A stretch of DNA of 31,678 nt from Nannocystaceae bacterium. Lineage in GTDB: Bacteria; Myxococcota_A; Polyangia; Nannocystales; Nannocystaceae. Positions 1,248-18,180 of this stretch are shown here, one piece after another (within the stretch, counting starts at the first letter, position 1; every line of letters starts with the position of its first letter). The notes beneath the pieces were generated by a model, which saw only the letters and a program-made list of their open reading frames with translations, had not been told where the DNA came from and ran no database searches. A program made the translations under genes and the position numbers. The DNA lies in contig JAWKQY010000082.1 in the NCBI GenBank assembly GCA_041389905.1, positions 1 through 31,678 of the forward strand, in the 5' to 3' direction.

Positions 1248-2930
1248 ATGCGTGGATTTGGCTTCGGTAGATCGATCGCCGCGCTCGCGCTCATCGCGGG
1301 TGGCTGTGCGCTCGGGGACGGAGACTCGGCGGCGCCCGGTCTCTCGGCGGGGAACCAGACGGCGACCGAGGGCGGGTCGACTGGCGCGACGGAGGGCGGC
1401 ACCGAGTCGACGAGCGGACCTTCGGGCGGGAGCGAGAGCGAGGGCGGCGACACGACGGCGCCGCCCGGCTGCGGCGACGGCGTGGTCGAGGGCGACGAGG
1501 CGTGCGACGACGGGCCCTTCAACGGCGCCGGCTACGGGTGGTGCAACGGGGTCTGCGGCGGGATCAAGGCGACCTCGCCCAACGCGATCTACGTCGCGAC
1601 GGGAGGCGACGACGCCAACGCAGGGACCCGCGACGCGCCGCTGCTGACGATCGGCGCCGCCGTGGTCAAGGCCGACGCCGTCGACGCGGACGTCTATGTC
1701 GCGAAGGGGGTCTACAGCGAGCCTGGGACGATCGACCTCATCGACGGCGTGTCGGTCTACGGCGGCTTCGACGAGGACGACGACTGGTCGCGCGCGCCCG
1801 ACAACCTCACGCGGATCGAGGTCGCCGCGCCGCTGGCGATCAGCGGCCTGCTCCTCGAGTCGACGACCGCGCTGACGCTGCTGACCGTCGCCAGCGGCGA
1901 CGGCGGCCCCGGCGAGTCGACCTACGGCGTCTTCGCCAGCGACAGCGACGGGCTCGTGATCACGGACTGCGTGATCGAGGCGGGGCGCGGCGGCGACGGT
2001 GCGGCCGGCGGCGACCAGGGCGGCGCGGGCGGCAGCGGCGGCTCCGGGATCGCCGGGCAACCTGGCTGTGAGGACAGCACCGGCCTGTGCTCGACGTGCT
2101 CGAAGCCGCTGGGGGGTCAAGGCGGGAGCTCGAGCTGCGGAGCGACCGGCGGGCCCGGCGGCGCCCCTGGCAACGGCCCAGCCTCAGGATCCCCAGGGGG
2201 CCAAGGCGGCGGCGGGACGCCGGGCGGCCCGGGGACACCGTCGGCGCAGGGCGACTGGAACACGCCGAACAGCTACTGGGGGCAGGACGGCGCCAGCGGC
2301 GACGACGGCAGCGACGGCGCCGCAGGTGCGCCTGCGTTCGGCGCGACCGGCTACACCGCGAAGGACGGCCAGGCGGGCGGCGACGGGGTCGACGGCAAGG
2401 GCGGCGGCGGCGGCGGCGGAGGCGGCGGCGGCGAGAACCTATGCGACTCCTTCGGCGGCGGCGGAGGAGGCGGCGGAGGAGGCGGCTGCGGCGGCCTCGG
2501 CGGCGGCGGAGGGGCGAGCGGCGGCGGATCCTTCGCGATCTTCCTCTGGGGATCGGACGCCGAGATCGGCTCGTGCGAGCTCCGCACGGGAGGCGGCGGC
2601 GACGGAGGTCAGGGCGGCAAGGGCCAGCCGGGAGGGGCCGGCGGCGAGGGGGGCGTCGGCAGCCTCAGCGGCGCGGGCAACAACTACGGCGGCAGCGACG
2701 AGCAGGACGACGGCTCCAATGGCGGACGCGGCGGACGCGGGGGGAGCGGAGGCGACGGCGGCCCGGGTGGCGGCGGGGCAGGGGGCCCCTCGGTCGGGGT
2801 GGTGCTCGCCGGCGGCTCGACCCCGGCGCTCGCCGAGCTCACGCACGACATCGGTCCGGCGGGGGCAGGGGGCGCCTCGGACGGGCTCTCGGGGCCGATC
2901 GGCGCCGAGGCGGAGACGCTGACGCCGTAG
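1248..2930 (+). CDS. Secreted lipoprotein: myxobacterial Cys-rich repeat, right-handed beta-helix (DUF1565-like) domain, and a long Gly-rich C-terminal region
   Basis: N-terminus MRGFGFGRSIAALALIAGGC is a signal peptide with lipobox. CGDGVVEGDEACDDGPFNG..WCNGVC matches the myxococcal cysteine-rich repeat pattern. IYVATGGDDANAGTRDAPLLTIGAAV resembles the start of a parallel beta-helix (DUF1565/pectate-lyase-like). The rest is GGxGG repeats encoded by (ggc)n-rich DNA at 2400-2520. Confidence 0.75.
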   Translation: MRGFGFGRSIAALALIAGGCALGDGDSAAPGLSAGNQTATEGGSTGATEGGTESTSGPSGGSESEGGDTTAPPGCGDGVVEGDEACDDGPFNGAGYGWCNGVCGGIKATSPNAIYVATGGDDANAGTRDAPLLTIGAAVVKADAVDADVYVAKGVYSEPGTIDLIDGVSVYGGFDEDDDWSRAPDNLTRIEVAAPLAISGLLLESTTALTLLTVASGDGGPGESTYGVFASDSDGLVITDCVIEAGRGGDGAAGGDQGGAGGSGGSGIAGQPGCEDSTGLCSTCSKPLGGQGGSSSCGATGGPGGAPGNGPASGSPGGQGGGGTPGGPGTPSAQGDWNTPNSYWGQDGASGDDGSDGAAGAPAFGATGYTAKDGQAGGDGVDGKGGGGGGGGGGGENLCDSFGGGGGGGGGGGCGGLGGGGGASGGGSFAIFLWGSDAEIGSCELRTGGGGDGGQGGKGQPGGAGGEGGVGSLSGAGNNYGGSDEQDDGSNGGRGGRGGSGGDGGPGGGGAGGPSVGVVLAGGSTPALAELTHDIGPAGAGGASDGLSGPIGAEAETLTP

Positions 2931-3157
2931 CCCCGGCGTCCCTCGGGGACGCCTCGGTTCGGGCGCGGGCGCACGCGCTGCGGGCTCCTCATCGCGCGCG
3001 TATTCGACCGCGTCGACGCGGCGCCTCGCGGCCTCACAGCGTGCCCTCGCCGCGGCTCCGACGGCGTGCGCGAGGGCTCGCGGGGCGGCCGCTCGGGCCT
3101 CCTCGCGCGCGACAGAGGTGTTACTCTCGGCCGACGTTGCAGCGACGAGATCGAGCG

Positions 3158-4894
3158 ATGGCAGCCACAAGCGACGGCTTCCTGCAGATTCGACGGGGAG
3201 ATCAGCTCCTCCGGGTGACCCCCATGATCGGCCCGCGCATGGTCGCCGGTCGCTCTCCCGACGTCGAGCTCGTGCTCGCCAGCGACACGGTCTCGCGGCA
3301 GCACCTCGAGGTCATCCGCGAGGCCGGGGGCTGGTGGGTCCGCGACCTCGGCAGCCGCAACGGAACGGCGGTCAACGGCAAGCAGATCGCCTCGCATCGC
3401 CTCGCCTACGGCGACGTCATCCAGGTCGAGGACTACACCCTGACCTTCGTCCGCGCGCCGAGCGAGGGGCGGGCCCCCGCGCGCAAGCCGGTCACGGCGG
3501 AGGGCTCCTCGACGCGCCTGACCCTCGTCGACAGCCCGGTCGGCTCCGTCCGCTCGCTCCGCGATCTCGGCGCGCCGAAGATCGACGCCTCACACCTCTC
3601 GCGCCTCGTCTCGCTCAGCGCCGAGCTCCTCGCCACCGAGGCCGATGACGATCGCCTCGACAAGCTGTGCAAGCTGATGGTCAGCCGCGACATGCGGGGG
3701 ACCGCGGCCGTGGCGATCCGGGTCTTCCGCACGGGGGTCGCCGACCCCGAGCTCCTCGTCCCGCCGTCGCTCACCGGCGCCGGCCAGGGCGTCCCGCACA
3801 TCTCACGGACGGTGCTCCGCGCGGTCATCACCCAGGGCACCCCTGTGATCGCCTCGACCTCGGCCGCGCCGGGCGGGAACACCGATCTGCTCAAGCTCTC
3901 GGTCGTCGTCCAGTCGATGTCCGCGGTCGCCGTGCCGATCGGCGGCGAAGGCGAGACGCTCGACGTCCTCTACGTCACCTTCCCGAGCAACTACGCGACC
4001 GCCGAGTGGCTCGCGCTGGTGTCGCTGGCCGGCGAGCTCTACCGCCAGGCCGACGCCGCCTGGGTCGCGCGCCGGGCCGCCCAGGAGCAGGCGATCCTCG
4101 AGGAGGAGCTCGAGCGCGCGCACGACATCCAGACGCGCCTCGTCCCCGACGACTTCCACCTCGGCCAGCTCGACGTCGGCTTCGGCTTCGAGGCGTGTAA
4201 GTGGGTCGGCGGCGACTACGTAGACGCCCTCCCGCTCCACGACGGCCGCGTCCTCATCACCGTCATGGACGTCTGCGGCAAGGGCCTCGAGGCCGCGCTG
4301 ATCGCCGCCGGCCTGCACACGACGGTGCACGTCCTCGTCCACGAGGGGCTCAGCCTCGCGCCGCTCGTCGCCAGCCTCAACCGCTACCTGTGTGAGACCC
4401 TGCCGGCGGCCTCCTTCGTGACGATGTGCGCCCTCGTGCTCGACCCGAACACCGGCGTCATCGAGCACGTCAACTGCGGCCACCCGCCGCCGCTCGTCGC
4501 CGGCCGCAGCGGCGTCGTCCGCGAGATCGCGCTCCACGAGCACGCGCCGCTCGGCTTCCTCGACGTCGACGAGGCGATCGTCGTCACCCGCGACCAGCTC
4601 CCGCGCGATCACATCCTCGTTCTCTACACAGACGGCCTCTCGGAGCTGCTCAACGAGCGCGACCAGATGCTCGGCGTCGAGGGCCTCAGCACCCTCATCG
4701 GCGAGGTCGGTCGGGCCGCGCCGGAGAGCTCCGCGACGCGCCTCGCCGCCGCCCTGCGCGGCGCCCTCGCCGACTACCAGGGCCGGGCCGTCGCCGCTGA
4801 TGATCTCTCGTTTATCCTGGTTCTCCGCGCCGTCCCGGCCGTGATGCGCACCGGCCCCCAACGGGTCGCGCGCTTCCCCAAGCCGGGTCGCTGA
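3158..4894 (+). CDS. FHA domain - GAF-like domain - PP2C-family (SpoIIE/RsbU-type) protein serine/threonine phosphatase
   Basis: The long track ORF 2087..4894 is Arg-rich junk until the in-frame ATG at 3158. From there the N-terminus has FHA hallmarks (GRSPDVELVLASDTVSRQHLEV...GSRNGTAVNGKQI). The C-terminal ~230 aa carry SpoIIE/PP2C metal-binding motifs (VGGDYVDAL, MDVCGKG, LYTDGLSE, DDLSFILV). Confidence 0.8.
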   Translation: MAATSDGFLQIRRGDQLLRVTPMIGPRMVAGRSPDVELVLASDTVSRQHLEVIREAGGWWVRDLGSRNGTAVNGKQIASHRLAYGDVIQVEDYTLTFVRAPSEGRAPARKPVTAEGSSTRLTLVDSPVGSVRSLRDLGAPKIDASHLSRLVSLSAELLATEADDDRLDKLCKLMVSRDMRGTAAVAIRVFRTGVADPELLVPPSLTGAGQGVPHISRTVLRAVITQGTPVIASTSAAPGGNTDLLKLSVVVQSMSAVAVPIGGEGETLDVLYVTFPSNYATAEWLALVSLAGELYRQADAAWVARRAAQEQAILEEELERAHDIQTRLVPDDFHLGQLDVGFGFEACKWVGGDYVDALPLHDGRVLITVMDVCGKGLEAALIAAGLHTTVHVLVHEGLSLAPLVASLNRYLCETLPAASFVTMCALVLDPNTGVIEHVNCGHPPPLVAGRSGVVREIALHEHAPLGFLDVDEAIVVTRDQLPRDHILVLYTDGLSELLNERDQMLGVEGLSTLIGEVGRAAPESSATRLAAALRGALADYQGRAVAADDLSFILVLRAVPAVMRTGPQRVARFPKPGR

Positions 4895-5403: not shown

Positions 5404-8400
5404 CTAGGCGACGGCCAGGCCGACGCTGCGCCGGGCCTCGAAGTAGGCCTCGCTGACGCTGTAGACGATCAGCTCGGTGAGCGCGTCCTTGCCGGTGATG
5501 TTCACCGCCGACGAGCGCTGCTCGCTGCGGATCGCCTTGGCGGCGGCCTCGAGGTCGTTGCTCAGCAAGAGCCCGAGGCGGTAGCCGGCGATCGCCGCGG
5601 CCCGGGCCCAGCGCTTGACGTCCGTCTGGCCGAGCTCGCGCGCGAGCGCCTTCACCTTCTCGAGGTTCGCCGGCGGCAGGCGGTTGACGAGCTCCTGGAT
5701 GATGACCTGGACCCCTTGGCCGCCGTCGCCCGATCCGCGCTCGGCGAGCACGGAGCAGGCGACGAGGAGCTGGCCGAGGTTCTTCGGCGAGCGCTCGAGG
5801 AGGAAGAACGCGTGGTGCGGCGGGTAGAGCTCGAGGAGGTGGCGGGCGACCTCGAAGACGACCTCGCCGTCCGTCCGCTCCTGGCGCAGGAGGCTGCCGC
5901 GGGCGATCGCCACCTGCTCGACCTCGCCGCCGCGGCGACGGACGCTGTGGATCGTGATGTCGCCCGGCTCGCTGCGCAGGAAGTGGAGCTCCGGCTGCTG
6001 GACGTTGATGATCCGCGCGACGTACGAGAGCGCCTGCGCCGGCAGCGACGGGCTCTCGGCCGTGTCGATAGGCTCGCTGTCGCGGAGCTGCGGCGGCGCC
6101 GGCTTCGAACGCCAGGTCGCGAGCGCCGGGTCGACGAGGCCGAGGAGCATCGTCACCGTCGGATCCTGATCGCCGGGGAGCACCGTGCGCCGCAGCGTGT
6201 CGTCGCTCAGGCGCAGGCGCGCCTGGCGAAAGACCGCCGGCGGCCCGCTGCGGTAGAAGGCGCCCTCCTCGTCGGTCGCCTGCTTGAGGAAGAGGAGCGT
6301 GCGGGCGACGCAGTACGCCTTGTCGATCTCGTTTTGCTGGCGGTAGATGTTGTAGAGCTGGTGGTAGCTCCGGTAGTAGCTCGGATCGAGGCGGATGAGC
6401 GTGCTGTGGCTGCGGATGAGCGCGTCGGTGTACTGCGCCGGGTCCTGCTGCATCAGCATCCCGTAGAGCTCCGTGACCATGAGCTGGCGCTTGAAGTTGC
6501 TCGGATCGAGGCTCAGCGCGACCTCGAGGGCCTTGGCCGCGGACGCGTAGTCGCCGACGCGCGAGCGGTAGATCTCGGCGAGGTTGTGCCACAGGAGCTG
6601 CTTGAGCGGCGACTTGTCGTCGGCCGGCAGGCGCTTGATCATCTTGCGGTAGGCCCGCTCGAGCGCCTTCCAGTCCTTGCGCTTGGTGAGGATCGTGTCG
6701 ATCGCCTGGAACGCCTTGAGGAACTCGCGATCGTCGTCGAGGACCATGTCGAAGCGGCCGAGCGCCTCGTCGGGGTTGTCGAGGTTGTCGCGTTGGATCG
6801 CCGCCGAGGTGTAGAGGTACTTCGCCCGCCGCTTCGGCTCCTGCTCGCCGGCGATCAGCTCGTCGAGGATCGGCATCACCTCGGGCCAGCGCTTGGCCTC
6901 GGTGTGGAGGTCGAGGAGCGTGTGGAGGAGCGTCTTGTCGTCGGGGCGCAGCTCATGCGCGCGCTGGAAGGCGGCGACGGCCCGCCCCGGCTCGCCGAGG
7001 TGGTCGCGGAAGATCTTGCCGATCTCGACGAAGACGCCGGCCTTGGCGTCGCCCTCGAGCGTCGGCAGGCGCCCCTGGTGCGCCTTCAGGAGGCCGCGCC
7101 AGTCCTTGTTGTCGGCGTAGATCTCGGCGAGGCCGCTGTGCGCGTGGACGTTCTTGGGGTCGCAGCCCAGCGCCTCCTTGTAGTTCTGGATCGCGATGTC
7201 GCTGCGCCCCTGCGCCAGGGCGATCTCGGCGAGCTTGACGTGGACGCTCGCCTTGGCGTCGCCCTGGCGGCGGCCGAGGAGCTTCTCGTAGGCCATCCGC
7301 GCCTCGTCCCAGGACTTGCGGACCATGGCGAGCTCGGCGACGCCGACGAGCGCGTGGCTCGACTCGGGATCGATGTCGAGGGCGCGCTTGAAGAGCTTGC
7401 TCGCCTTCGACGTGCTGCCGATGGCGCGCGCGACCTGACCTGCGCGGACGAGCACGCCGACCTTGCTCGTGTCGCGCAGGCCGAGGTTGTCGATCTTGCG
7501 CACGAGCGCGTCGAAGATCGGCGCGGCGGCGACGTAGTTCTTCTGCTCGTAGTAGATCTTGCCGAGGATCGGCCCGACCTTCGCGTTCTCCGGGTCGATC
7601 TCGACGACCTTGGCGAACATCTGGATCGCCCGATCCTTGACCTGGAGCTTCTCGAGCCAGACGAAGCCGGCCTCGGTCGCCCGCTCGACGCGCTCGTAGC
7701 TGCTCGTCGTGTGCTCGACGATCGCCTCTAGCGCCTCGACGAGCTCGATCCACTCGTGGCGCGCGCGGAAGAGGTCGGCGAGGAGCTTGAGCGCCTCGAG
7801 GTGCCCGGGCGCGAGCTCGGTCGCCTGGTAGAGGCGGGCGATCGCCGAGTCGGTCTCGGAGAGCTTGTGGTGGAGGCCGCCGAGGTGGGCGAGCTGATCG
7901 GCGCAGCGCTTGCTGTCGGTGCACAGCTCGACGAAGCGCTCGTAGTGCGGGATGGCGTCCTCGATCTCCTGCTTGCGCTCGAGCGCCTGCGCGAGGCCGA
8001 GGTGGGCCTCGAGCGCGCCGTCGTCGGCGTCGATGAGCGCCCGGTAGATCTCGATCGCCTTGTCGTAGTTGAGGATGTGCCGGAGGTAGAGGTCGGCGAG
8101 CGAGCCCATCAGCTTGTGGACCGCGTCGTCGTCCGTGGCGAGCTCGAGGCGGCGGAGGTAGACGGCCTCGAGCTCGCGCCAGCGCTTGGCCTCGGAGTGG
8201 CGCTGGCCGAGCTGGAAGTAGGCGTAGTCGCGGCCCTGATTGATCCACTGGGACCAGCGCAGGTAGTCCTCGGAGTCCTTGGCCTCGCCGGCCATGGCGT
8301 TGAGGGCCCGATCCATCTTGTCGAGGACCTGGAGCTGATCGTCGGGGGAGGGCGCCGTCGCGAGCATCCCCTGCAGCGCCTCGATCGAGTAGAAGAGCGC

Positions 8401-9369
8401 CGAGTCCTTGGTCGGCTGCGCGCCGATCTGGCTCATCGCGCCGCCCGCCGCCGCGCCGACCGGCGCCCCCGCCGAGCCGCGCCGCGGCACCTTGCCCTCG
8501 TCGCTGATCTCGCGCAGGTCGTGCTCGAGGGCGCCGAGATCGGGGTAGCGATCCTCGGGCGCCTTGGCGAGGCAGCGCAGGATCACGGCCTCGACGGGCG
8601 GCGGGATGTCGGCGTCCGGGGCGATGTTCCGCGGCGGCGGCGGCGAGGCCATCGTGTGCTGGGTGACGACCTGGTGCGGCTCCTTGGCGGTGAAGGGCAC
8701 CGACCCGGTGAGGAGGCTGTAGAGGAGCACGCCGACCGAGTAGACGTCGGCGCGGACGTCGAAGGGCTTGCCCTCGGCCTCCTCCGGCGCGGCGAACTCG
8801 GCGACCTCGAGGAGCTCCGGGCCGCTGAAGATGTCGAGGCGCGGCGCCGGCGACAGGCCGAAGGCGGTGAGCTTGACGTGATCGAGGCCGTCGCCGGCGT
8901 CGACCATGAAGACGTTCGACGGGCGGACGCCGCCGTGGACGATCCCCTTGCCGTGGGCGACCCGCAGGGCGCCGAGCACCTGGAGGATCAGCCCCTTCGC
9001 CCGCGGCCAGGGGAAGCGCTGCGTGCCGGCCTGGAGGCTGCCCAGATCGCTGCCCTCGAGGTACTCGTAGATCAGGTAGACGGCGCCGGACTCCGTCGTC
9101 CCGTAGCTCATCAGGCGGGCGACGTTGGCGTGGCGGACGAGCGAGAGGATCCGCGCCTCGCGGAGCACCTTGGCCGCGAACTCCTCGTTCGCCGAGAGCT
9201 CCGGGTCGATGATCTTGGCGACCACCAGCTTGAGCAGGGTCGTCTGCTCGGCGAGGAAGAGCTGGCCGGAGTCACCTGGCCCGAGGTCCTCGGTGAGGGT
9301 GTACTTCTTGGCGATCACAGCGCCGACTTGCGGGACCGCGCCTCCATCAACGGGCGATGTATCGTTCAT
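5404..9369 (-). CDS. Pseudokinase-TPR giant protein: N-terminal Hanks-type kinase-like domain with degenerate catalytic motifs, followed by ~1000 aa of TPR repeats
   Basis: The track ORF 5404..9645 has an Arg-rich junk N-terminus. The plausible start is ATG at 9369 (MNDTSPVDGG...). The kinase fold is recognisable: GPGDSG Gly-loop, VVAKII with the Lys, APE-like AAPEE. The catalytic loop reads HGGVRPSN instead of HRDLKPxN, and DFG is replaced by AFG (KLTAFGLS). Downstream there are many A-x-x-Y/L helical repeats (TPR-like) to the C-terminus. Confidence 0.8.
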   Translation of the reverse strand: MNDTSPVDGGAVPQVGAVIAKKYTLTEDLGPGDSGQLFLAEQTTLLKLVVAKIIDPELSANEEFAAKVLREARILSLVRHANVARLMSYGTTESGAVYLIYEYLEGSDLGSLQAGTQRFPWPRAKGLILQVLGALRVAHGKGIVHGGVRPSNVFMVDAGDGLDHVKLTAFGLSPAPRLDIFSGPELLEVAEFAAPEEAEGKPFDVRADVYSVGVLLYSLLTGSVPFTAKEPHQVVTQHTMASPPPPRNIAPDADIPPPVEAVILRCLAKAPEDRYPDLGALEHDLREISDEGKVPRRGSAGAPVGAAAGGAMSQIGAQPTKDSALFYSIEALQGMLATAPSPDDQLQVLDKMDRALNAMAGEAKDSEDYLRWSQWINQGRDYAYFQLGQRHSEAKRWRELEAVYLRRLELATDDDAVHKLMGSLADLYLRHILNYDKAIEIYRALIDADDGALEAHLGLAQALERKQEIEDAIPHYERFVELCTDSKRCADQLAHLGGLHHKLSETDSAIARLYQATELAPGHLEALKLLADLFRARHEWIELVEALEAIVEHTTSSYERVERATEAGFVWLEKLQVKDRAIQMFAKVVEIDPENAKVGPILGKIYYEQKNYVAAAPIFDALVRKIDNLGLRDTSKVGVLVRAGQVARAIGSTSKASKLFKRALDIDPESSHALVGVAELAMVRKSWDEARMAYEKLLGRRQGDAKASVHVKLAEIALAQGRSDIAIQNYKEALGCDPKNVHAHSGLAEIYADNKDWRGLLKAHQGRLPTLEGDAKAGVFVEIGKIFRDHLGEPGRAVAAFQRAHELRPDDKTLLHTLLDLHTEAKRWPEVMPILDELIAGEQEPKRRAKYLYTSAAIQRDNLDNPDEALGRFDMVLDDDREFLKAFQAIDTILTKRKDWKALERAYRKMIKRLPADDKSPLKQLLWHNLAEIYRSRVGDYASAAKALEVALSLDPSNFKRQLMVTELYGMLMQQDPAQYTDALIRSHSTLIRLDPSYYRSYHQLYNIYRQQNEIDKAYCVARTLLFLKQATDEEGAFYRSGPPAVFRQARLRLSDDTLRRTVLPGDQDPTVTMLLGLVDPALATWRSKPAPPQLRDSEPIDTAESPSLPAQALSYVARIINVQQPELHFLRSEPGDITIHSVRRRGGEVEQVAIARGSLLRQERTDGEVVFEVARHLLELYPPHHAFFLLERSPKNLGQLLVACSVLAERGSGDGGQGVQVIIQELVNRLPPANLEKVKALARELGQTDVKRWARAAAIAGYRLGLLLSNDLEAAAKAIRSEQRSSAVNITGKDALTELIVYSVSEAYFEARRSVGLAVA

Positions 9370-9551
9370 AATCAGCCACTCGAACGATAGCCGATGTCGC
9401 GCGAGAGGTGGCCGTCGCGGCCGCGCTCGATGATTGCAGGTGCATGTTCCTGCGCGCGCGACAACGCGCGAAGCGAGGTGTTCGTGCGCGCGCATTCGCG
9501 CCCGTGAAGCCTCGCTCCGCGCGCGGACGAGCGCGCGCGCCGGCGCGCCGC

Positions 9552-10736
9552 TCAGTAGGCGACGCCGATGTCCGCGGCCTGCGAGCGCAGCATGTCGACG
9601 ACGCTGTTGTCGAAGCCGTCCGCGCCGCTGTTGTCCTCGACCCACGCGTCGCGCTTCTTCGCGACCTCGAGGATCTGCTTGTTGAGCGCCTCGCGCTGGC
9701 GGCGGAGGTCCGCGACGTAGGCCTGCTGCTCGCTCGTGCTCATCCGCTGCATGTTCTCCGGGAGCGCCTCGTTGGCGACGCGCTCGAGCTCGACGCGGCC
9801 CTCGTCGAGCGCCGAGAGGAGATCCTCGTCGTTGAGGCGCGCCGTCTTGGCGGAGTACGACGCCGCGTCCGCGGCCGCCTCGCCCGAGAGGGAGGAGCGC
9901 GCCCGCACCTTGCGGTGCGCCCTCGCCTTGTCCGTCGCGCTGCCCCAGCCGAGCGAGGTCGCGGCGAGCGAGCGGTTGAGCTCAGCGAGCTCGGCGTCGA
10001 AGGGGGAGTCGAGGCGATCGACGCCGCCGTCCTGATCGATGGTCGACATCTCGCCGCCGGCGAGCTGGGCGATCCGCGTCCACGCGGCGGCCGTCTCCGG
10101 CTGCTGCCCGCAGCGGATCGTGTTGATGACGATGCCCTTGGCCTTGGCCGCGGCCGCGAGGTCGCTGCTCGAGGGCCCGGCGTAGTCGTCGTGCGGCGGC
10201 GCGTCGCCGACGAGGAAGACGAGGCGGAGGACGTTGTCGCCCTGCTCCCAGGCCATGCCGTGGATCGCGTCGGCGAGGCCCTGGTTGACGTGCTCCGGGC
10301 CGTCGCCGCCGCCGCCCGCGGCGAGGGCGTTGAGGTCGCCCTGGAGGCCGTCGAGGTCGCGGGTGAGCGGCGAGTTGCGGGTGACGTACTCGTCGTTGAG
10401 ATCGCGGAAGGCGACGAGGCCGACGCGGATGTCCGGGCGCGGCTGCCCCGAGGCGAGGCGGTTGGCGATCGACCAGATCTTGCGCTTCGCGCCGTCGAGG
10501 AGCCCGCCCATCGAGCCCGTCGTGTCGACGACGAAGACGACGTCGATCCGCGGGCGCTGCTCCTGCTCGGGGCGGACGAGCGGCGCCTCGGGCTGCGCCT
10601 GGGTCTGCGCGCTGGCGGCGGTCGTCGGGACGTGCGTGGTGGGCTGGGGGATCGGCCAGATCTGGTTGGCGATCAGGGTCCCGCACATCAGGGAGGTGAG
10701 GGCGGCGCCGATGTAGATCATATGGGAGGTGCGCAT
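9552..10736 (-). CDS. Membrane-anchored von Willebrand factor type A (VWA) domain protein
   Basis: Start ATG at 10736 (MRTSHMIYIGAALTSLMCGTLIANQIW, a signal anchor/TM) with GGAG ~13 nt upstream. VWA/MIDAS signature at RIDVVFVVDTTGSMGG...LVAFRD...VFLVGDAPPHDD. C-terminal ~150 aa helical region. The track ORF 9552..10889 has a junk N-terminal extension. Confidence 0.8.
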   Translation of the reverse strand: MRTSHMIYIGAALTSLMCGTLIANQIWPIPQPTTHVPTTAASAQTQAQPEAPLVRPEQEQRPRIDVVFVVDTTGSMGGLLDGAKRKIWSIANRLASGQPRPDIRVGLVAFRDLNDEYVTRNSPLTRDLDGLQGDLNALAAGGGGDGPEHVNQGLADAIHGMAWEQGDNVLRLVFLVGDAPPHDDYAGPSSSDLAAAAKAKGIVINTIRCGQQPETAAAWTRIAQLAGGEMSTIDQDGGVDRLDSPFDAELAELNRSLAATSLGWGSATDKARAHRKVRARSSLSGEAAADAASYSAKTARLNDEDLLSALDEGRVELERVANEALPENMQRMSTSEQQAYVADLRRQREALNKQILEVAKKRDAWVEDNSGADGFDNSVVDMLRSQAADIGVAY

Positions 10737-10922: not shown

Positions 10923-12107
10923 CTACTTGCAGGTCTTGAGCGCGGCCTTGACCTTCGACGACGAGCTCTTGCGCGCCGCGGCCTTCTGCGCCTCGGCGGT
11001 GCGCCCGAGCTTGCACAGCGCGAGGACCTCGATCTCGACCCGCTGCTCGACGAGCTGGCTGTCGGGGAACTCCTTGGCGTGCTGGCGGGTGTAGGCGAGC
11101 GCCTGCGCCGGGTTCGTCTTCAGCGACTTCTTCGCCTCGCTGAGCATCTGGAGCTCGATGATCACGCGGCCGGAGTCCTTCGCGCCCTTCTTCGACGAGG
11201 ACGTCGTCGTCGACGTGCTCGAGGTCGACGACGTGCTCTTCTTCTTGGTCGTCGCCTTCTTGGCCTTCTTGGTCGTCGACTTCTTCGTGGTGGTCGTCGC
11301 CGCGGCGGTCGCGTTCGTGTCGGCGCTAGCGTCTGCGCTGGCGCCCCCGGTGCCGTCTGTGCCGCTGTCTGTGTCGCCGCCGGTCGTCGTCGCGGGCTCG
11401 GGCTCGGGTTCTGGCTCTGGCTCTGGCTCTGGCTCGGGCTCGATCGGCGGCGGCTCTGGCTCTGGCTCGTCCTCGAGGAACGCGGGGACCCACGGCAGCT
11501 CGATGATCTCCTGCTGGTGGAGGACGATCGCCGCGGTCGCGCCGAGGGCGACGAAGCCGACGAGCGCGAGGATGATCAGGGGCCAGCGACGACGCTGGCC
11601 CAGGACCGCGTCAGGCCGGCCGTCGACGACGTCTTCGCCGCCCATCTCGCTCGAGAAGGTGCGACCCCGCGGCAGCGGGACCGAGCCGAGCTCGCTGGAG
11701 AACGTCCGTCCGTCGCCTGTCGCGACGTCGCCGAGCTCCGTCGAGAAGGTGCTCGCAGGTCGCCGCGCTGGGGCGCTCGGGGTCGACGCGGGGGCCGCGG
11801 GGTTCGCCTGCGCAGGCGCCTGGAAGGGGTGCTGATGCGGCTGGCCGAAGGGGTACTGGGGCGGCTGCTGCGGCTGCGGCTGGCCGAAGGGGTACTGGGG
11901 CGGCTGCTGCGGCTGCTGCTGGCCGAAGGGGTGCTGTTGCGGCTGCTGCTGCGGCTGACCGAAGGGGTGCTGTTGCGGCGGCTGTTGCGGCTGCTGTCCG
12001 AAGTTGCGGTGCTGTTGCGGCTGACCGGGTGCTGTTGCGGCTGTTGCGTTGGCCGAGGGGTGCTGTTGCGGCTGTTGCGGTTGGAAGGGAGGCTGTTGCG
12101 GCTGCTG
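10923..12107 (-). CDS. Membrane protein, 3' segment: Q/P-rich repeats (QQPQQxPFGQ), three TFSSE-like motifs, one TM helix, periplasmic (EP)n and Ser/Thr/Lys-rich linkers, small helical C-terminal domain
   Basis: The reading frame of track ORF 10923..11645 is open without stop up to 12107 but contains no ATG upstream of 11645. Hand translation upstream of 11645 gives ...QPQQPPQYPFGQPQPQQPPQYPFGQPHQHPFQAPAQANPAAPASTPSAPARRPASTFSTELGDVATGDGRTFSSELGSVPLPRGRTFSSEMGGEDVVDGRPDAVLGQRRRWPLIILALVGFVALG... The sequence is protein-like throughout. The minus-strand reading gives a Pro/Gln-rich protein, while the plus strand gives Gly/Arg/Leu junk. Confidence 0.6.
   Translation of the reverse strand, partial: QQPQQPPFQPQQPQQHPSANATAATAPGQPQQHRNFGQQPQQPPQQHPFGQPQQQPQQHPFGQQQPQQPPQYPFGQPQPQQPPQYPFGQPHQHPFQAPAQANPAAPASTPSAPARRPASTFSTELGDVATGDGRTFSSELGSVPLPRGRTFSSEMGGEDVVDGRPDAVLGQRRRWPLIILALVGFVALGATAAIVLHQQEIIELPWVPAFLEDEPEPEPPPIEPEPEPEPEPEPEPEPATTTGGDTDSGTDGTGGASADASADTNATAAATTTTKKSTTKKAKKATTKKKSTSSTSSTSTTTSSSKKGAKDSGRVIIELQMLSEAKKSLKTNPAQALAYTRQHAKEFPDSQLVEQRVEIEVLALCKLGRTAEAQKAAARKSSSSKVKAALKTCK
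11391..11470. repeat. (ggctct/ggctcg)n hexanucleotide microsatellite encoding the (EP)n linker on the minus strand
   Basis: Direct reading: ggctcgggctcgggttctggctctggctctggctctggctcgggctcg ... ggctctggctctggctcg. Confidence 0.8.
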
Positions 12108-12130
12108 TCAAGGGGCACTGCGGCTGCTGC
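11830..12130. repeat. Imperfect ~33-bp tandem repeats (ggccgaaggggtactggggcggctgctgcggctg-like), ~8 copies, encoding QQPQQPPQYPFGQ units
   Basis: Repeated ccgaagggg(t/g)(a/g)ctg(g/t)(g/t)gcggctgctgcggctg blocks are visible by eye. Confidence 0.7.
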
Positions 12131-12519
12131 TGCTGGCTGGGCCGAAGGTGCTGCGGATGTTGTTGTCCGGGGGTGGGCGAGAGGTGCGGCTGCGGCTGCG
12201 GTTGCTGCTGGGTTGGGCGAAGGGTGCGGCTGCGCTGCGTTGCTGCTGCGGTTGGGCGAAAGGGGTGCGGCTGCGCCTGGGGTTGCTGCGCGTACGCTTG
12301 CGGCTGCGGCTGCTTGCGGATGACCGTAGGGCTGCGGCTGCTGGGCGGCGGGCTGCTGGGTCGGCTGCGGCTGGCCGAAGGGATAGCCAGGGGCCTGCGC
12401 CTGAGGTTGCCCGAAGGGCTGAGCCTGCTGCGCGTGCGACGAGGCCTCCTCGGCGGAGGGGGCGCTCGGCGCCTCCGAAGCCTGTCCAGGCTGGGCGAGG
12501 GCCCTGTGGTGGGGCGTGC

Positions 12520-12910
12520 GGTGAGCCGAGGGGGGGCTGGTTGAGAGGGCTCCCGGACGCGTGAACCTGCCCGAAGGGACCGGTCGGGGGCTGGTTGAGG
12601 GCTCTGGGTCGCGGGGGCGTGCGGCGAGAGCCGAGGGGCTGGTTCGGACCGTCTCGGGCTGGTTGGGGGCTCTGGGTCGCGGGGGCGTGCTGGTTGAGAG
12701 GGCTCCCGGACGCGTGAACCTGCCGGATCAGTCGGGGGCTGGTTGAGGGCTCTGGGTCGCGGGGGCGATGCGGCGAGCCGAGGGGGAGCTGGTTGAGGGC
12801 TGCCGGACGCGTGAACCTGCCCAGAGGACCGGTCGGGGGATGGTTGAGGGCTCTGGGTCGCGGGGGCGTGCGGCGAGCCGAGGGGAGGATGGTTGAGGGG
12901 GGTCCCGGAT
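12520..12910. repeat. Long-unit tandem repeats (~100-155 bp unit, ~3 copies) within the repeat gene
   Basis: ctggttgagagggctcccggacgcgtgaacctgcc recurs at ~12537, ~12693 and ~12790 (the last as ctggttgagggctgccggacgcgtgaacctgccc). ggctctgggtcgcgggggcgtgc recurs about 5 times. Confidence 0.7.
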
Positions 12911-13194
12911 GCCGAAGTTTGAGGGCTCTGGGTCGAAAGGTTGAGCTCTGGGTCGAGGGGGCGCTCGGGAGCCGAGGGGCGGGAGGCCCGATCCATGAGC
13001 TTGGCCGAAGGCTGCGGTTGGTCGAGGGCTCTGGGTCCGGGGGCGTGCCGAGCCCAGGGGAGGCTGGTTGGGGGGCTGCCGGTTTGAGGCTGTCCGAAGG
13101 GACTTGTAGGGGAGGCGGGAGGAGAGGGCTCTGCGTCGACGGGGCGCTCTGCCCAGAGGCGGAGGCAGGCTGTCGAGGGGACTTGTAGAGGGGA

Positions 13195-13530
13195 GGCGGG
13201 AGGAAGGGCTCTGAGGCGACGTTGGTTGAGCGGCTCTGCGAACTCAGGCGGTTGGTTGAGCGGGCTCTGAGGTGGTTGGTGAGCGGGGCTTTGAGGCGGT
13301 TGGTTAGCGGGCTCCTGAGGTGGTTGGTTGAGCGGGCTCTGAGAGGTGGTGAGCAGGGCTCCGCGGCGGTTGGTTGAGCGGGCTCTGGGGGCTTGATTGA
13401 GCGGGCTCGAGGTGGTTGATTGAGCGGGCTCTGAGGGGGCTGATTGAGCGAAGGGCTCCGCGGCTGATTGAGCAGGCTCCGGGGGGCTGATTGAGCGGGC
13501 TCTGAGGGGGCTGATTGAGCGGGTTCTGAG
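13195..13530. repeat. Short-unit degenerate tandem repeat (~23-25 bp unit, ~13 copies): g(g)ttg(a/g)ttgagcgggctctgagg
   Basis: Direct reading. Spacer length varies by 1-2 nt between copies, so the encoded PLNQPPQS / AQSAPSEP / RSISPLRA peptides are the same DNA unit read in three phases. Confidence 0.75.
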
Positions 13531-13994
13531 GCGCGCGCGCGAAGGGCCCCTGGGGAGGTCCGAGGGGGGCGCTAGGCCGGTTGAGCGGGTTGGGGGCCAC
13601 GAGCCCGATGAGCGTCCCTTTCGGCGCGCCCGACGGGGTCGCGGCGGGACGCGGCGTCTGGAAGCCCGCGGGCACCTGCCACGTCGGGGCCGCCGGCTTG
13701 GCCTCGGTCTCGGGTTCAGGCTCAGGCTTCGGCTCGGGCCCGCCGACGAGCGACGGGATGTTCCACGGCTGCTTGGGATCGTCGTTGGCCACGCGACCGA
13801 GATAGTCTCACGGCCGGGCCGCGCTCGCACCATCGCGCCGTGCGCCCCCCGAGGACCCGCCTACACGCCGCTCGGCCTCCGATCTCCTCGGATGACGCCG
13901 CGGCAAACATCGCGCGCGCCGCGGGAGCGGCGCTCGACTCGGCTCGAGGTGCGGTCCGTCGCGGTCGGCGACGCAGCGGCGGCGTCGCGAGCGG

Positions 13995-14558
13995 CTAGGA
14001 CGGTTGAACGGCCGACGCCGACGGGCGCGCGCCGAGCTTGTTGCCGAACTTGTCCCCGCAGCGGGTCATGATCTCGGTGGCGCGGCTCTTGGTGATCTCG
14101 CGCGGCGACGCGTTGGTGAGCGCGTGGGCCTGGCAGCGCGCGACGTCGACGTCCTTGTTCGCGAGGCACTCGTCGCGCGCCTTGTCGAGGTCCATCGGCT
14201 TGAAGACGTTCCAGCGCTCGAGCTCGTCGGGCTTGCCGGCGAGCCGGCGCTGGACGAAGTCGTCGTAGGCCTGGCGCATCGCGTCGCAGGCGCCCGCGAG
14301 ATCGGTCGGGATGTCACCGCCGTCGGGGACGATCGTCAGGGCGTCGATGGCCTCGCGGACAGCCTGCTCGGCCTTCGCCGCGGTGCGCTCCTTGAGCCGC
14401 TTCATGTCGCGTGTCGCCTCCTTGGCGGCGGCCTCGGGGTCGGCGTTCTCAAAGGCCTTGGCGATGCTGTTGCGGGTCTTGGCCTTGTCGCCGTCGCCAC
14501 AGGCAGAGGCGGTAAGGAGCAGGCCTATGGCGATGAGCGCGGACTTGGTGGTGGGCAT
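13995..14558 (-). CDS. Small periplasmic lipoprotein of unknown function (4 additional Cys)
   Basis: Start ATG at 14558 with GGAGG 8 nt upstream. MPTTKSALIAIGLLLTASAC is a signal peptide with lipobox. The rest is Lys/Glu/Ala-rich and helical. The track ORF 13995..14660 has a 34-aa junk extension. Confidence 0.7.
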   Translation of the reverse strand: MPTTKSALIAIGLLLTASACGDGDKAKTRNSIAKAFENADPEAAAKEATRDMKRLKERTAAKAEQAVREAIDALTIVPDGGDIPTDLAGACDAMRQAYDDFVQRRLAGKPDELERWNVFKPMDLDKARDECLANKDVDVARCQAHALTNASPREITKSRATEIMTRCGDKFGNKLGARPSASAVQPS

Positions 14559-14967
14559 ACGAAGACCTCCGTGTCGAGCGAATGCGCACTCCGATATGCC
14601 ACGGGGCGAATGCGACCGACAAGGGTCGATCTCCGCGGGTGATGATGGCGCGTCGCCCACTGTCCCGTTACGCGCCGCTCGCCGCCGCGGCGGCGCCTCT
14701 CGCAGCGCGGCCGCGCCCCTCAGCCCGCCGACGCCGACCGCGACTTCGTTGACTCGTCACGGACTTTCGGCCCGCGCAGCGACGGCGGCGCGGGCGTCTC
14801 GGGCGGCGCCGCCGATCGCCCCGAGGCGCCCCTGCGCGCTCGTCTGCGCGAGGCGTGCGCTCAAAGATTTCTCTGGCGATCGTCTGGCGCTACGTCCAGG
14901 ATAGTCGGGCTGGGCTGCTTTATGCAGGGGGGCACGCGGGGAGAGGCGCCGAGGTCGGGATAAGGCG

Positions 14968-17900
14968 ATGGATCTGACGCTACTTGCGAGAGAGCGCGTG
15001 GGGAAGGTCCTGCGTGGCAAGTACCACTTGGATCGCCTCATCGACGTCGGCGGCATGGCTGCGGTCTACGAGGCGACCCACCGTAACGGTACGCGCTCCG
15101 CGATCAAGGTGCTCCACCCGAAGTACGTCTCGGACGTGCAGGCGCGGACGCGGTTCCTCCGCGAGGGCTACGCGGCCAACCACGTCGGTCACCCCGGCTC
15201 GGTCACCGTGATCGACGACGACTTCACCGAAGACGGTGAGGTCTACCTGGTGATGGAGCTCCTCGACGGCGAGTCGCTCGAGAGCTGCCTCGCCCGCGAG
15301 CGGGTGCTCCAGCCGCTCGACGTCCTCAGCATCGGCGATCAGCTCCTCGACGTCCTCACGGCGGCGCACGCCAAGGACATCATCCACCGCGACATCAAGC
15401 CCGCGAACATCATGCTGACGCGGAGCGGGATCGTGAAGCTCCTCGACTTCGGCCTCGCCCGCGTGCGCGAGCTGCCGGCGGTCGCCGGGGTCCACAGCGC
15501 GGAGATCGTCTTCGGCACGGTCGCCTACGTCTCGCCAGAGGCCGCGCGCGCGAACAACGACGCGATGGACGGGCGCGCGGACCTCTGGGCGGTCGCGGCG
15601 ACGATGTTCAAGGCGCTCACCGGCGAGACCGTCCACGGCATGGACGGGTCGGTGATGGAGCGCCTGATCCGGGCGGCGAAGGACCACGCGCGCTCGCTCG
15701 GCGAGCTCGCGCCGCACCTCCACCCGCGCGTCGTCGACGTCATCGATCGCGCCCTCGCGTTCAAGCGCGAGGATCGCTGGCCGAGCGCCGCGGTGATGCA
15801 GGCGGTCATCCAGGACGTCATCGCGGAGCTGATGGAAGAGACAGGCGTCCCGCCGTCGATCTTCTTCATGCCGGCGCTGTCGCAGATGGTCGCGGTGTAC
15901 ACGCCCTCGGGGCCGATGTCGTCGTCGTCGGCCGCGGCGACGCCGACGCCGCGGCCGATGGCCTACAACCCGCACCTGGCGACGCCGTCGCCGAGCCCGT
16001 ACCCGTACCCGGCCGCCCACGCGACGCCGTCGCCGTCGCCGTCGCCCTTCGCCAACCCGCTCAACCAAGTGCGCGGGCGGGCGCCGCAGGCCTACGTCCC
16101 GCAGACGCCGCAGGTCAACTACGCCAACCCGCTCAACCAGGTGCACGGCCGCCGGCAGCAGCAGCCGCAGCAGCAGCCGCAGCCGCGACCGCAGGCCTAC
16201 AACCCGCTCAACCAGGTCTCCGCGCCGCCGCGCTCGCACGCCCGCCCTCAGAGCGCGCCGCAAAACCAAGCCCGCGGCGCCTACGGCCCGGACGCGATGA
16301 ACCAGGCGCGCGGGCACGACCCGTACGCGCAGCAGCGCCGCCCGCCTGCGCGGCCGCAGGGCGACGGATCCTTTGACATCGACATCGACATCGACATCGA
16401 TCTCGACGTCGACCTGGGCGGCGACCCTCGCGAGCTGACGACGACGTCGGAGAACGTGGGCACGCGGCCGGCCGCGCTCGCCGACGAAGCGGAGCCGGCG
16501 CGCCCCCTTCGCCGCGCGACGACGATGCGCGACCTCGGGGCCGCGGCGGCGCGCGCCCGGGCGACGCTCGACGCCCGCCTGCGCGGCTCGACCCCGGTCG
16601 CTCCGCCAGCGCCCGAGCCAGCGCCAGCGCCAGCGCCCGCCGAGGACTTCGAGATCGACATCGGCTTCGGCGAGAGCACGAGCGCCGGCGTGGTGGTCGA
16701 GGTCGCGGAGAGCACGACCTCCGGGGTGGTGATCGACGTCGACGAGCACTACACGCCGGAGCGCCAGCCGTCTGTCTCTGGGGACATCTACGACGAGGAC
16801 GAGTTCATCGACGGCGAGGAGCTCGACTCGGGCGTCGAGTTCGTCTCTGGCGACGACGACGACGAGTACGATGCGAGCGACGCGAGCGCGGGGCGCAGGA
16901 CGTCGGAGGACACCGTCCGGATGGCGATCCCGCAGCCCAGCGAGGACACCGTCAAGCGCCCGCCGCCGGAGCTGCCAAGCGAGCAGACGGTCCGTCGCCC
17001 CTTCCCGCAGCCGCCTGTCGCGGCGGTGAGCGGTGAGATCGGCGCGCCGACGATCGCGTCGCCGCCGACGATCGCCGCGCCGCCGACGATCGCGTCGCCG
17101 CGGGGCCGAGGGGCGCCGCGGATCGCTGCGCCGCCGACGGTCGTGTCGCCGCCGACGATCGGGACGCCGCCGACGATCGGGACGCCGCCGACGATCGGGA
17201 CGCCGCCGACGATCGCCGCGCCGAGGATCGTGTCGCCGCCGACGATCGCCAGCGGTCGCAGCGAGGACACGGTCCGCGGCCCCGCGCCGCTCCCTCCCAG
17301 CGAGGACACCGTCCGCGAGCGAGGCCCGGAGGCCAGCGGCATGGAGGCGGGGATCCTCGTCGAGGCGATCGAGGACGAGGGCGACTGGCCCGAGGACGAG
17401 GTCTGGGGCGCCCCTGCGACGGGCGCAGAGGCGGCCGAGCGGCCCCCCGAGGTGATCGCCGAGGAGGCCGCGCCCGAGGTCGCCGAGGAGGAGGCGAAGC
17501 CCGCCCGGAAGTCGCTGTTCACGCCGCGCTCGAAGGGCTCGCTCGGCGGGCTCCTCGGCCTGCCGCCGATGGGCTCGCGCTTCACCGGGAGCTCGCGCCT
17601 GCAGACCAAGGCCGAGGAGGAGGAGGCGCAGCGCGAGGCGGAGGCGGCGGCGAAGCGCGAGGCAGAAGAGGCGGCGCGGCGCGAGGCGGAGGCGGCGGCG
17701 AAGCGCAAGGCAGAAGAGGCGGCGCGGCGCGAGGCGGAGGCGGCGGCGAAGCGCGAGGCCGAGGAGACGGAGAGGCGCGAGGAGGCGGCGCGGCGCGAGG
17801 AGGAGCGCAGGCCGCCGCGGCGCAGCGCGACGAGGAGCGCAGGGCGGCGGCGACGAAGCGCGCCGAGGAGCGCAAGGCGGCGCGGCGCGAGGCCGAGGCG

Positions 17901-18180
17901 CGGGCGAAGGCGCGGCGTGAGGCCGAGGAGAGGGAGAAGGCGGCGCCGGAGCGGCCGCGCCGAAGCGGACGGTCGGCGCCGGCAGCCGCGGCCTCGATCG
18001 CCTCTTCATCCCTGCGCGGGCCGGCGGCGCCTTTCGCGATCCGGTCGTCGTCGACGCGTCGACGACGACGCTGACCCCCCCGGATCGCACGGTGCGGGTC
18101 GCCATCCGGGCCCCGTCGACGCTCCCCGATCTCGGCGTCGGTCAGCGCTCCTTCGGCGCGAAGCCGCCGAAGGCCGGTGA
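14968..18180 (+). CDS. Active Hanks-type Ser/Thr protein kinase with a ~750-aa repeat-rich intrinsically disordered tail; the 3' end is frameshifted and the true C-terminus is probably at 18403
   Basis: N-terminal ~270 aa have all catalytic motifs: G-loop VGGMAAVYEA, AIKVL Lys, HRDIKPANIM, DFG, SPEAA. The tail contains NPLNQV x3, (DI)n, PPTI(A/G)x hexapeptides x~10, PSEDTV(R/K) x5, a REAEAAAKREAEEAAR coiled-coil x3, and VDEVEV x3. After ~17805 the frame-1 reading becomes Arg-rich junk, while frames 0 then 2 carry protein-like sequence to the TAG at 18401-18403. Confidence 0.85.
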   Translation: MDLTLLARERVGKVLRGKYHLDRLIDVGGMAAVYEATHRNGTRSAIKVLHPKYVSDVQARTRFLREGYAANHVGHPGSVTVIDDDFTEDGEVYLVMELLDGESLESCLARERVLQPLDVLSIGDQLLDVLTAAHAKDIIHRDIKPANIMLTRSGIVKLLDFGLARVRELPAVAGVHSAEIVFGTVAYVSPEAARANNDAMDGRADLWAVAATMFKALTGETVHGMDGSVMERLIRAAKDHARSLGELAPHLHPRVVDVIDRALAFKREDRWPSAAVMQAVIQDVIAELMEETGVPPSIFFMPALSQMVAVYTPSGPMSSSSAAATPTPRPMAYNPHLATPSPSPYPYPAAHATPSPSPSPFANPLNQVRGRAPQAYVPQTPQVNYANPLNQVHGRRQQQPQQQPQPRPQAYNPLNQVSAPPRSHARPQSAPQNQARGAYGPDAMNQARGHDPYAQQRRPPARPQGDGSFDIDIDIDIDLDVDLGGDPRELTTTSENVGTRPAALADEAEPARPLRRATTMRDLGAAAARARATLDARLRGSTPVAPPAPEPAPAPAPAEDFEIDIGFGESTSAGVVVEVAESTTSGVVIDVDEHYTPERQPSVSGDIYDEDEFIDGEELDSGVEFVSGDDDDEYDASDASAGRRTSEDTVRMAIPQPSEDTVKRPPPELPSEQTVRRPFPQPPVAAVSGEIGAPTIASPPTIAAPPTIASPRGRGAPRIAAPPTVVSPPTIGTPPTIGTPPTIGTPPTIAAPRIVSPPTIASGRSEDTVRGPAPLPPSEDTVRERGPEASGMEAGILVEAIEDEGDWPEDEVWGAPATGAEAAERPPEVIAEEAAPEVAEEEAKPARKSLFTPRSKGSLGGLLGLPPMGSRFTGSSRLQTKAEEEEAQREAEAAAKREAEEAARREAEAAAKRKAEEAARREAEAAAKREAEETERREEAARREEERRPPRRSATRSAGRRRRSAPRSARRRGARPRRGRRRGVRPRRGRRRRRSGRAEADGRRRQPRPRSPLHPCAGRRRLSRSGRRRRVDDDADPPGSHGAGRHPGPVDAPRSRRRSALLRREAAEGR
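17041..17240. repeat. 18-bp tandem repeats encoding PPTI(G/A)(T/S/A) hexapeptides (~10 copies; three perfect copies of ccgacgatcgggacgccg at ~17153-17210)
   Basis: Direct reading of the kinase-tail DNA. Confidence 0.8.

Follow-up and report, generated by a model that had tools for sequence, protein, structure and literature searches.

A short PLNQ-containing motif conserved in the tail of a Hanks-type kinase and in the divergently transcribed repeat gene beside it: a putative docking motif of Nannocystaceae

Analysis of a 31,678-nt contig from a Nannocystaceae bacterium (JAWKQY010000082.1, hereafter the window; 71% GC, with its best protein matches in metagenome-assembled genomes of Nannocystaceae and Nannocystis) revealed that a short peptide, [N/H/S]-P-L-N-[Q/A], recurs in the long tail of a Ser/Thr kinase gene (14968–18180, plus strand) and in the repeat region of the divergently transcribed gene next to it (10923–13792, minus strand; hereafter the neighbour). 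The motif is real and non-random, is independent of DNA repeats and is conserved in orthologues of both genes. Because the core is kept while the flanks, the spacing and the copy number change, we read it as a short linear motif (SLiM), whose conservation pattern is that which would be expected of a functional one; in the sequences sampled, it occurs only in these two genes and within a Nannocystaceae-like clade. The initial annotation of this DNA had proposed that the shared peptide is a docking motif for a common partner. Conservation at the protein level, independence from repeat DNA and a predicted common compartment speak for this proposal, whereas its assumption that one gene of the window encodes all of the neighbour copies was wrong, given the frame breaks described below. 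Overall, we consider evenly balanced the possibility that the peptide is a lineage-specific (Nannocystaceae), multi-copy, putative docking SLiM that couples the kinase to the neighbour.

The kinase comprises a catalytic domain at residues 19–278 (PF00069, E 1.8e-35), in which HRDIKPAN and DFG are invariant in the kinase alignment, as in Hanks-type Ser/Thr kinases, followed by a tail of approximately 750 residues; the protein has no hydrophobic segment, hence no membrane helix is predicted. The tail contains exactly three copies of NPLNQ, all of them in the frame of the kinase open reading frame (ORF), and the three peptides initially reported from it (ANPLNQVRG, ANPLNQVHG and YNPLNQVSA) were all recovered. 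The copies are as follows, with related loci and proteins designated here and below by L and P numbers, respectively:

16054–16068, plus strand: kinase copy 1, NPLNQ (FANPLNQVRG), residues 363–367; position kept in L134
16126–16140, plus strand: kinase copy 2, NPLNQ (YANPLNQVHG), residues 387–391; YANPLNQ also in L123 and L134
16201–16215, plus strand: kinase copy 3, NPLNQ (AYNPLNQVSA), residues 412–416

These copies are 72 and 75 nt apart and have unrelated flanks, and Tandem Repeats Finder (TRF) detected no tandem array spanning them. An AlphaFold2 model of residues 1–521 gave a predicted local distance difference test score (pLDDT) above 85 for residues 1–300 and below 50 for residues 302–521, which include all three copies, without any local rise in confidence at the motifs; the motif-bearing region of the tail is thus modelled as disordered. 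Further downstream, the kinase frame shifts twice near 17800–17960, within the EAARREAEAAAKR coiled-coil repeat, and over its last ~130 codons the ORF appears to be in the wrong frame; the real C-terminus (…DRTVRVAIRAPSTLPDLG…KFKLPSLPKRPPKK) probably runs through other frames to position 18403 instead of 18180. The orthologue from L123 is one intact ORF of 1005 amino acids.

All six other orthologues of the kinase (50–90% identity) have the motif in the corresponding region of the tail, with 3–9 copies of [NHS]PLN[QA] each:

L134 kinase (~90% nucleotide identity to the window): 3 copies, at the same positions; the next residue is V, L or I
L123 kinase (kinase domain 89% identical): 4 copies, HPLNQV, SPLNQV, NPLNQV and NPLNRV
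P0001 / L136 kinase (70%): 4 copies
P0003 / L121 kinase (68%): 6–7 copies
P0004 / L001 kinase (68%): 5 copies
P0005 kinase (50%): 9 copies of [NH]PLN[AQL]

Copy number, spacing and flanks vary among these seven kinases, while the core is kept. NPLN and PLNQ are 4-mers common to all seven tails, and the only others come from the island TPTPRP…TPSPSPYPYP (see below). Across seven kinases and four neighbour proteins, about 45 copies share an invariant P, L and N, which defines a short core, [NHS]-P-L-N-[QA(R/H)]; its conservation amid diverging flanks, spacing and copy number is seen in all seven kinases and, for the neighbour, at four of five loci. More distant kinases (L002 and L003, 45–49% identity) are without the motif. 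It is also missing from kinase P0008 of Nannocystis pusilla, which we discarded as evidence of joint loss because this kinase is not syntenic and therefore uninformative.

The tail of the kinase holds other conserved or repeated elements. The island TPTPRP…TPSPSPYPYP (15940–16011, plus strand) is single-copy, occurs in six to seven of the seven orthologues and may be either a target of proline-directed phosphorylation or a further docking site. At 16906–17316 (plus strand), S-E-[DQ]-T-V-[RK] occurs five times, with RTVRV near the C-terminus and similar xDTVR/KTMR copies in L123 and P0004; they are possible phospho-Thr sites, and a gene for an FHA-SpoIIE phosphatase lies in the locus. An 18-nt repeat (17045–17249, plus strand) encodes PPTI[AG]x about 11 times, the equivalent region of P0004 having PPVVG/PPIVG repeats, and a 15-nt repeat of 4.5 copies (18179–18246, plus strand) encodes DEVEV, an acidic and EEVD-like run close to the C-terminal end of the kinase; the locus also encodes two TPR proteins.

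The neighbour contains 13 xPLN[QRH] copies at 12537–13591 on the minus strand, which are spread over all three frames (4 + 6 + 3). The segments of this gene that are relevant to the motif are:

13304–13792, minus strand: N-terminal ORF, GTG start at 13792 (MANDDPKQPWNIPSLV...), 162 amino acids
13246–13533, minus strand: 24-nt tandem array encoding (Q)SPLNQPP (TRF period 24, 12.2 copies, 76% matches, 9% indels)
12532–12909, minus strand: second repeat family, with units of ~101–148 nt and copies in two frames
10923–12107, minus strand: C-terminal part, an open frame homologous to L001 7300–7947 and to P0121/P0122

The GTG start at 13792 is credible: GC content at third codon positions (GC3) peaks in its frame at 13840–13600, and the NCBI orthologue P0123 starts identically. 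The ORF beginning there includes NPLNR (13577–13591), NPLNQ (13511–13525) and two copies of SPLNQ (13487–13501 and 13370–13384), and ends at a stop codon because of frame drift in the repeat. Another six copies lie in a 740-amino-acid ORF of the second minus frame, and the membrane-spanning C-terminal part lies in the third. The copies fall in different frames because the units of the array measure 21–27 nt (24, 23, 21, 27, 23, 23, 24, 22, 24, 24 and 24 nt); those of the second family are TPLNH (12889–12903) and two SPLNQ (12690–12704 and 12537–12551). The window has no ORF that includes all copies or that connects the N-terminus with the membrane-spanning C-terminal part, and GC3 plots do not single out any frame within the repeats, being ~0.6–0.8 in every one of them. 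Of what the initial annotation reported for this gene, NPLNR (13577–13591) and QNPLNQPPQSPLNQPP (13487–13525) are present, and its description of the two motif regions as otherwise unrelated and low-complexity is correct; the many further (S)PLNQPP copies, however, do not belong to one frame.

The orthologues of the neighbour in L123, L134 and L136 are each single-frame, unlike that of the window, and the non-repeat genes of the window align to L123 unbroken. The frame breaks of the window could be assembly errors in repeats, pseudogenisation or variation driven by slippage. The 24-nt repeat is itself open in all three frames, encoding QSPLNQPP, RARSINHL or EPAQSTTS.

The first 102 residues of the neighbour, used as the query of an exhaustive HMMER search, retrieved one relative, P0123 (79% identical, with the same start), which lies on L134 beside the lipoprotein gene and the kinase. 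It carries GNPLNQPPQSPLNQPP..NPLNRLPQSPLNQPP, and reads ...GNPLNQPPQSPLNQPPRGPFGQAQQNPLNRLPQSPLNQPP in a single frame up to the end of the contig; relative to the window, L134 has a rearranged repeat block that nonetheless keeps the peptide. In L123, the neighbour (SNDDPKEPWNIPSLV...) is read in one frame of 309 codons that ends at the edge of the locus with NPLNQPPHNPLNQPPHNPLNQPPHNPLNHP, and has four NPLN[QH]PP copies about 250 residues further along than in the window or L134. The L136 neighbour reads VANDDPNEPWTIPALV...WQVPSGFQ...KPKGTLIGVV...NPFNPLNQPPRSPLAAP, and here the N-terminal region has diverged except for four conserved islands, of which NPFNPLNQPP is one. The distribution of NPLNQPP is thus not that of a slippage repeat confined to very close relatives: it occurs in L123 and L136 within diverged regions, and is absent from L001. 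Counting the window, the two genes can both be seen at five loci, and at four of these both carry the motif; conservation at the protein level, on which the docking proposal depended, extends to six of six other kinase orthologues and to the neighbour at three of the four other loci. A search with the N- and C-terminal parts of the neighbour found only two distant homologues of its C-terminal domain, P0121 and P0122, which have no PLNQ and no informative gene context.

Besides the motif, three more N-terminal islands (13598–13792, minus strand) are common to L134, L123 and L136:

13745–13792, minus strand: ANDDPxxPWxIPxLV
13658–13681, minus strand: WQVPxGFQ
13598–13621, minus strand: K(G/S)TLIG

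Shuffling of the window indicated that its content in motif-coding sequence is far above expectation, with 13 occurrences of the PLNQ-coding DNA CCNCTNAAYCAR (0.08 expected) and four of NPLNQ (0.00 expected), all of them in the kinase and neighbour genes. Likewise, every match to [NHS]PLNQ in the window, L001, L123, L134, L136 and L121 is in a kinase tail or in a neighbour, and there was none in the six-frame translation of 604 kb (1.2 million residues) of unrelated high-GC loci. A contig scan by kinase domain, which relied on generic kinase patterns, yielded nothing but paralogues, none above 49% identity, and these loci were reused as background. Scanning JGI metagenome contigs for two NPLNQ codings within 6–36 nt returned 51 loci, most of which were set aside as irrelevant, being tandem DNA repeats of low GC content whose ORFs were short or out of frame; the only high-GC, in-frame matches in long ORFs were this same locus (L121 and L123) and the unrelated L110. 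The latter (JGI Ga0170475_125021344, plus-strand ORF of 232 amino acids) is a secreted protein with a signal peptide and 12-residue repeats, GFGTGYNNPL[RMN]QA, which have a similar NPLxQ core but are extracytoplasmic. A synthetic protein query of concatenated NPLNQ gave no significant match, probably due to the bias correction of HMMER, and a literature search found no relevant mention of NPLNQ.

At the nucleotide level, the identity between the two genes is limited to a 12-nt core, CCGCTCAACCA[A/G], which extends to 15 nt in the sole neighbour copy with an initial AAC. Kinase and neighbour copies have unrelated flanks and differ in their codons, the neighbour often using CAA and AAT and the kinase mostly CAG and AAC; therefore, the motif is not a by-product of a shared DNA repeat. 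A head-to-tail DNA repeat, as expected from slippage, is seen in the neighbour, while the kinase copies, spaced by 72–75 nt, form no array. In seven units of the neighbour in which the core is followed by PP, the two codons after the core differ only at third positions. The same kind of variation in the four codons of the core was rejected as evidence of selection, because the units had been picked by that very pattern and the argument is circular.

The C-terminal part of the neighbour (10923–12107) encodes, in this order, Q/P-rich [HY]PFGQ repeats, three TFSxE, RRR, a membrane helix, a linker and a TPR-like domain. The helix is single (11520–11585), with three Arg before it and acidic residues after it, and is followed by a linker composed of (EP)n and a T/S/K-rich stretch; no signal peptide was found in the neighbour protein. 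From these flanking charges and the lack of a signal peptide, the positive-inside rule predicts that the N-terminus of the neighbour is cytoplasmic and its C-terminal domain outside. Both motif regions are consequently predicted to be cytoplasmic, and a common partner would therefore be physically possible. The motif region of the neighbour is probably disordered, judging solely from the Pro/Gln-rich composition of its repeats.

The TPR-like domain (10926–11171) is modelled as five helices with a pLDDT of about 90 and contains two invariant Cys; its best Foldseek matches, all weak (E 0.2–0.9), were BamD, the TPR domain of YbgF and LpoP. No Pfam domain was found in the neighbour protein, and no Pfam or NCBIfam model spans the motif region of either the kinase tail or the neighbour. 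Assignment of the neighbour to the GltJ or TonB families was rejected, since it scored 25 bits for GltJ (cut-off of 450) and 23 for TonB (cut-off of 315), and the resemblance is limited to the helix plus the EP linker. The segments before the membrane helix (11646–11750 and 11820–11969, minus strand) contain three TFS[ST]E and five [HY]PF(G)Q, and L001 has TFSNE/SFSNE and HSPF[AT]xYPQQ in the same place.

Several observations weigh against a docking role shared by both proteins. From the window alone, the match between the two genes is unlikely to be due to chance but is suggestive, neither overwhelming nor conclusive, because residue shuffles of each Pro/Gln/Asn-rich neighbour protein yield at least one PLNQ in 1–3% of trials; in addition, the shared peptide was selected freely, as any other could have been. 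The pairing is not obligatory either: the L001 kinase has five copies and its neighbour orthologue, recognised by the membrane helix and the C-terminal domain, has no PLNQ, only HSPFAPYPQQ repeats, with an HPLQHPP that is perhaps a relic of the motif. The motif-bearing neighbours come from fairly close relatives, as indicated by the identity of the L123 kinase domain (89%) and of the L134 sequence (~90%), and part of their conservation may reflect simple descent. The residues after the core also differ, being V/I in the kinase and PP in the neighbour. Lastly, the repeat of the window is broken over three frames, such that any one product holds at most 4–6 copies, and the gene may be a pseudogene here.

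Many of these observations would fit an explanation in which only the kinase motif is functional and the PLNQPP of the neighbour is a young tandem repeat that spells the same tetrapeptide by coincidence and is shared through descent. The neighbour indeed has a classic 24-nt tandem array with length variation of the slippage type, its codons AAT, CAA and CCT are atypical for a genome of 71% GC, with a GC3 of ~0.6–0.8 whichever the frame, and the motif-free L001 orthologue, the 1–3% yield from composition and the PP versus V/I difference all point the same way. Nevertheless, such a repeat would not be expected to survive as NPLNQPP in L136, where the N-terminal region has otherwise diverged save for three short islands, nor to reappear about 250 residues away in L123 as the same peptide, again with N as its first residue. 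The rearranged block of L134, with its peptide kept, and the restriction to third positions of the changes in the two codons after the core in seven PP units also argue against coincidence, which we regard as a rather unlikely alternative.

The copies could instead lack a specific reader and be biophysical elements, either polyproline-II spacers or "stickers," that drive self-association or condensates. Both regions are long, Pro/Gln-rich and multi-copy, the kinase tail is modelled as disordered with no gain in confidence at the motifs, and a copy number of 3–9 is what would be expected if valency outweighs position. We think this improbable, since a fixed P-L-N core and a first residue restricted to N, H or S, kept across a kinase divergence of 50% amid changing surroundings, are more specific than a role driven by composition usually demands, and Leu and Asn are otherwise rare in both motif regions.

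A particular case of the docking interpretation, to which we likewise assign a low probability, is that the reader is a TPR domain of the locus, from either the giant kinase-TPR protein (5404–9645) or the TPR protein at 60–1010. The initial annotation had pointed out that a TPR protein and a TPR giant lie nearby, and both genes are real: Pfam identified TPR repeats alone in the first (60–1010) and Pkinase plus TPR in the second (5404–9645), and neither product has membrane helices. TPR domains are known to bind extended peptides, as those of Hop and CHIP do with EEVD, and the giant is next to the neighbour in L001 as well. Adjacency is nonetheless a weak argument, as TPR and kinase-TPR proteins are very numerous in myxobacteria; moreover, the TPR-only protein is unmatched in L001 and L123, the syntenic giant of L001 accompanies a motif-free neighbour, and the motif is internal and uncharged, unlike the acidic, C-terminal EEVD ligands. 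The remaining alternative, that shared repeat DNA, or gene conversion between the inverted genes, gave rise to the common peptide, is effectively refuted: the 12-nt core CCGCTCAACCA[A/G] is identical in both genes and inverted-repeat matches do exist between them, but these are CAG/CCG (poly-Gln/Pro) runs (16143–16215 versus 11841–12358) and not the motif array, the flanks are unrelated, the synonymous codons differ, and the kinase copies are kept in L001, whose neighbour has none.

Under the docking interpretation, the motif copies would serve as multivalent docking sites of low affinity, recognised either by a single folded reader or by each other's complex, and through them the soluble kinase would be brought to the single-pass membrane protein to form, in effect, a two-gene receptor kinase; the TPR region of the adjacent kinase-TPR protein would be a candidate reader. 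We infer, rather than observe, that the motif binds something, that one reader serves both genes and which protein this reader might be. The complete scheme, a split receptor kinase made of a soluble Hanks kinase and a TonB-like envelope-spanning protein that share a private multivalent [NHS]PLNQ code with a cytoplasmic reader, possibly the TPR region of the kinase-TPR protein, is tentative and rather unlikely to hold in full. If it were true, bacterial Ser/Thr kinase signalling would gain one of its first described endogenous networks of multi-copy SLiMs, and expansion or contraction of the repeats would tune the strength of the coupling.

The motif adds to the known class of short linear motifs. 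Endogenous examples are well mapped in eukaryotes but have seldom been described in bacteria, and hundreds of Hanks kinases in myxobacteria have long disordered tails of mostly unknown function. Among eukaryotic multi-copy SLiMs in disordered regions are the NPF repeats bound by EH domains. These resemble the motif in their core of 3–5 residues with Asn-Pro, their multiple copies in disordered sequence, the turnover of number and position, and the occurrence of the same core in different proteins of one pathway; the motif of the window differs in being bacterial, from a Nannocystaceae-like clade, and in its P-L-N core, and a Pfam scan of the window proteins found no EH-like domain. Shared docking peptides also occur in bacteria, such as the beta-clamp-binding motif QL[SD]LF, the SSB C-terminal tip and the FtsZ C-terminal peptide. 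As in these cases, a conserved short peptide lies in or after a disordered linker and could allow several proteins to reach one hub; however, the known peptides are single-copy, near-universal and have known hubs, whereas the motif is multi-copy, clade-restricted and found in two genes so far.

The EEVD ligands of TPR proteins (Hop, CHIP and Tah1) are acidic and need a free C-terminal carboxylate. Here too there would be short extended peptides for TPR grooves, and TPR proteins are encoded nearby, but the copies of the window are internal (kinase residues 363–416 of more than 1000), multiple and devoid of acidic residues. As in PknB-like receptor Hanks kinases, a kinase domain, a disordered linker, a membrane helix and an extracytoplasmic repeat domain are supplied, in this case jointly by two divergently transcribed genes over which the parts are split, with their coupling being hypothetical. 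In Myxococcus xanthus, the cytoplasmic GYF domain of GltJ binds a proline-rich sequence of AglZ with micromolar affinity (PMC11135422). This is a myxobacterial precedent for a cytoplasmic proline-rich sequence that docks on a folded domain, with one of the partners being a single-pass membrane protein with a Pro-rich region (PMC11135422); in our locus, the membrane protein bears the motif instead of the reader. Neither GYF nor ZnR domains were detected in the ten window proteins scanned.

The motif can be synthesised as a peptide and would thus offer a handle for finding its reader, for examining how the soluble kinase is linked to an envelope sensor and for asking whether repeat copy number tunes the signalling. 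Given its narrow scope, one clade and two genes, and an argument built on sequence conservation, it constitutes a good lead and not a surprise.

The genes of the locus are arranged as follows:

60–1010, plus strand: TPR-only protein (Pfam TPR_16 and TPR_14), frame open to the window edge
1248–2930, plus strand: Gly-rich, lipoprotein-like ORF
~3155–4894, plus strand: FHA-SpoIIE phosphatase
5404–9645, minus strand: kinase-TPR giant, a Pfam Pkinase domain followed by many TPR repeats, without hydrophobic segment or membrane helix
9552–10889, minus strand: VWA protein
10923–13792, minus strand: repeat gene (the neighbour)
13995–14558, minus strand: small lipoprotein (MPTTKSALIAIGLLLTASAC...), between both motif genes
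14968–18180, plus strand: Ser/Thr kinase
18421–20052, minus strand: PhoD phosphatase

The only other locus with enough flanking sequence to examine the synteny of the TPR genes is L001, where the kinase-TPR giant is syntenic (58% identity over 1322 amino acids) and also adjoins the neighbour gene; the TPR-only protein (60–1010) gave no tblastn match in L001 or L123. The small lipoprotein gene, whose product is motif-free, also occurs in L121, L123 and L134 but not in L001. Its orthologue in L123 (11566–12020, plus strand) matches the window protein in three frames, and the L123 contig is therefore also frame-broken. The ORF at 1248–2930, without Pfam matches, contains extreme Gly runs (GGGGGGGGGGGG at ~2400–2500) and lies in a region of 80% GC.

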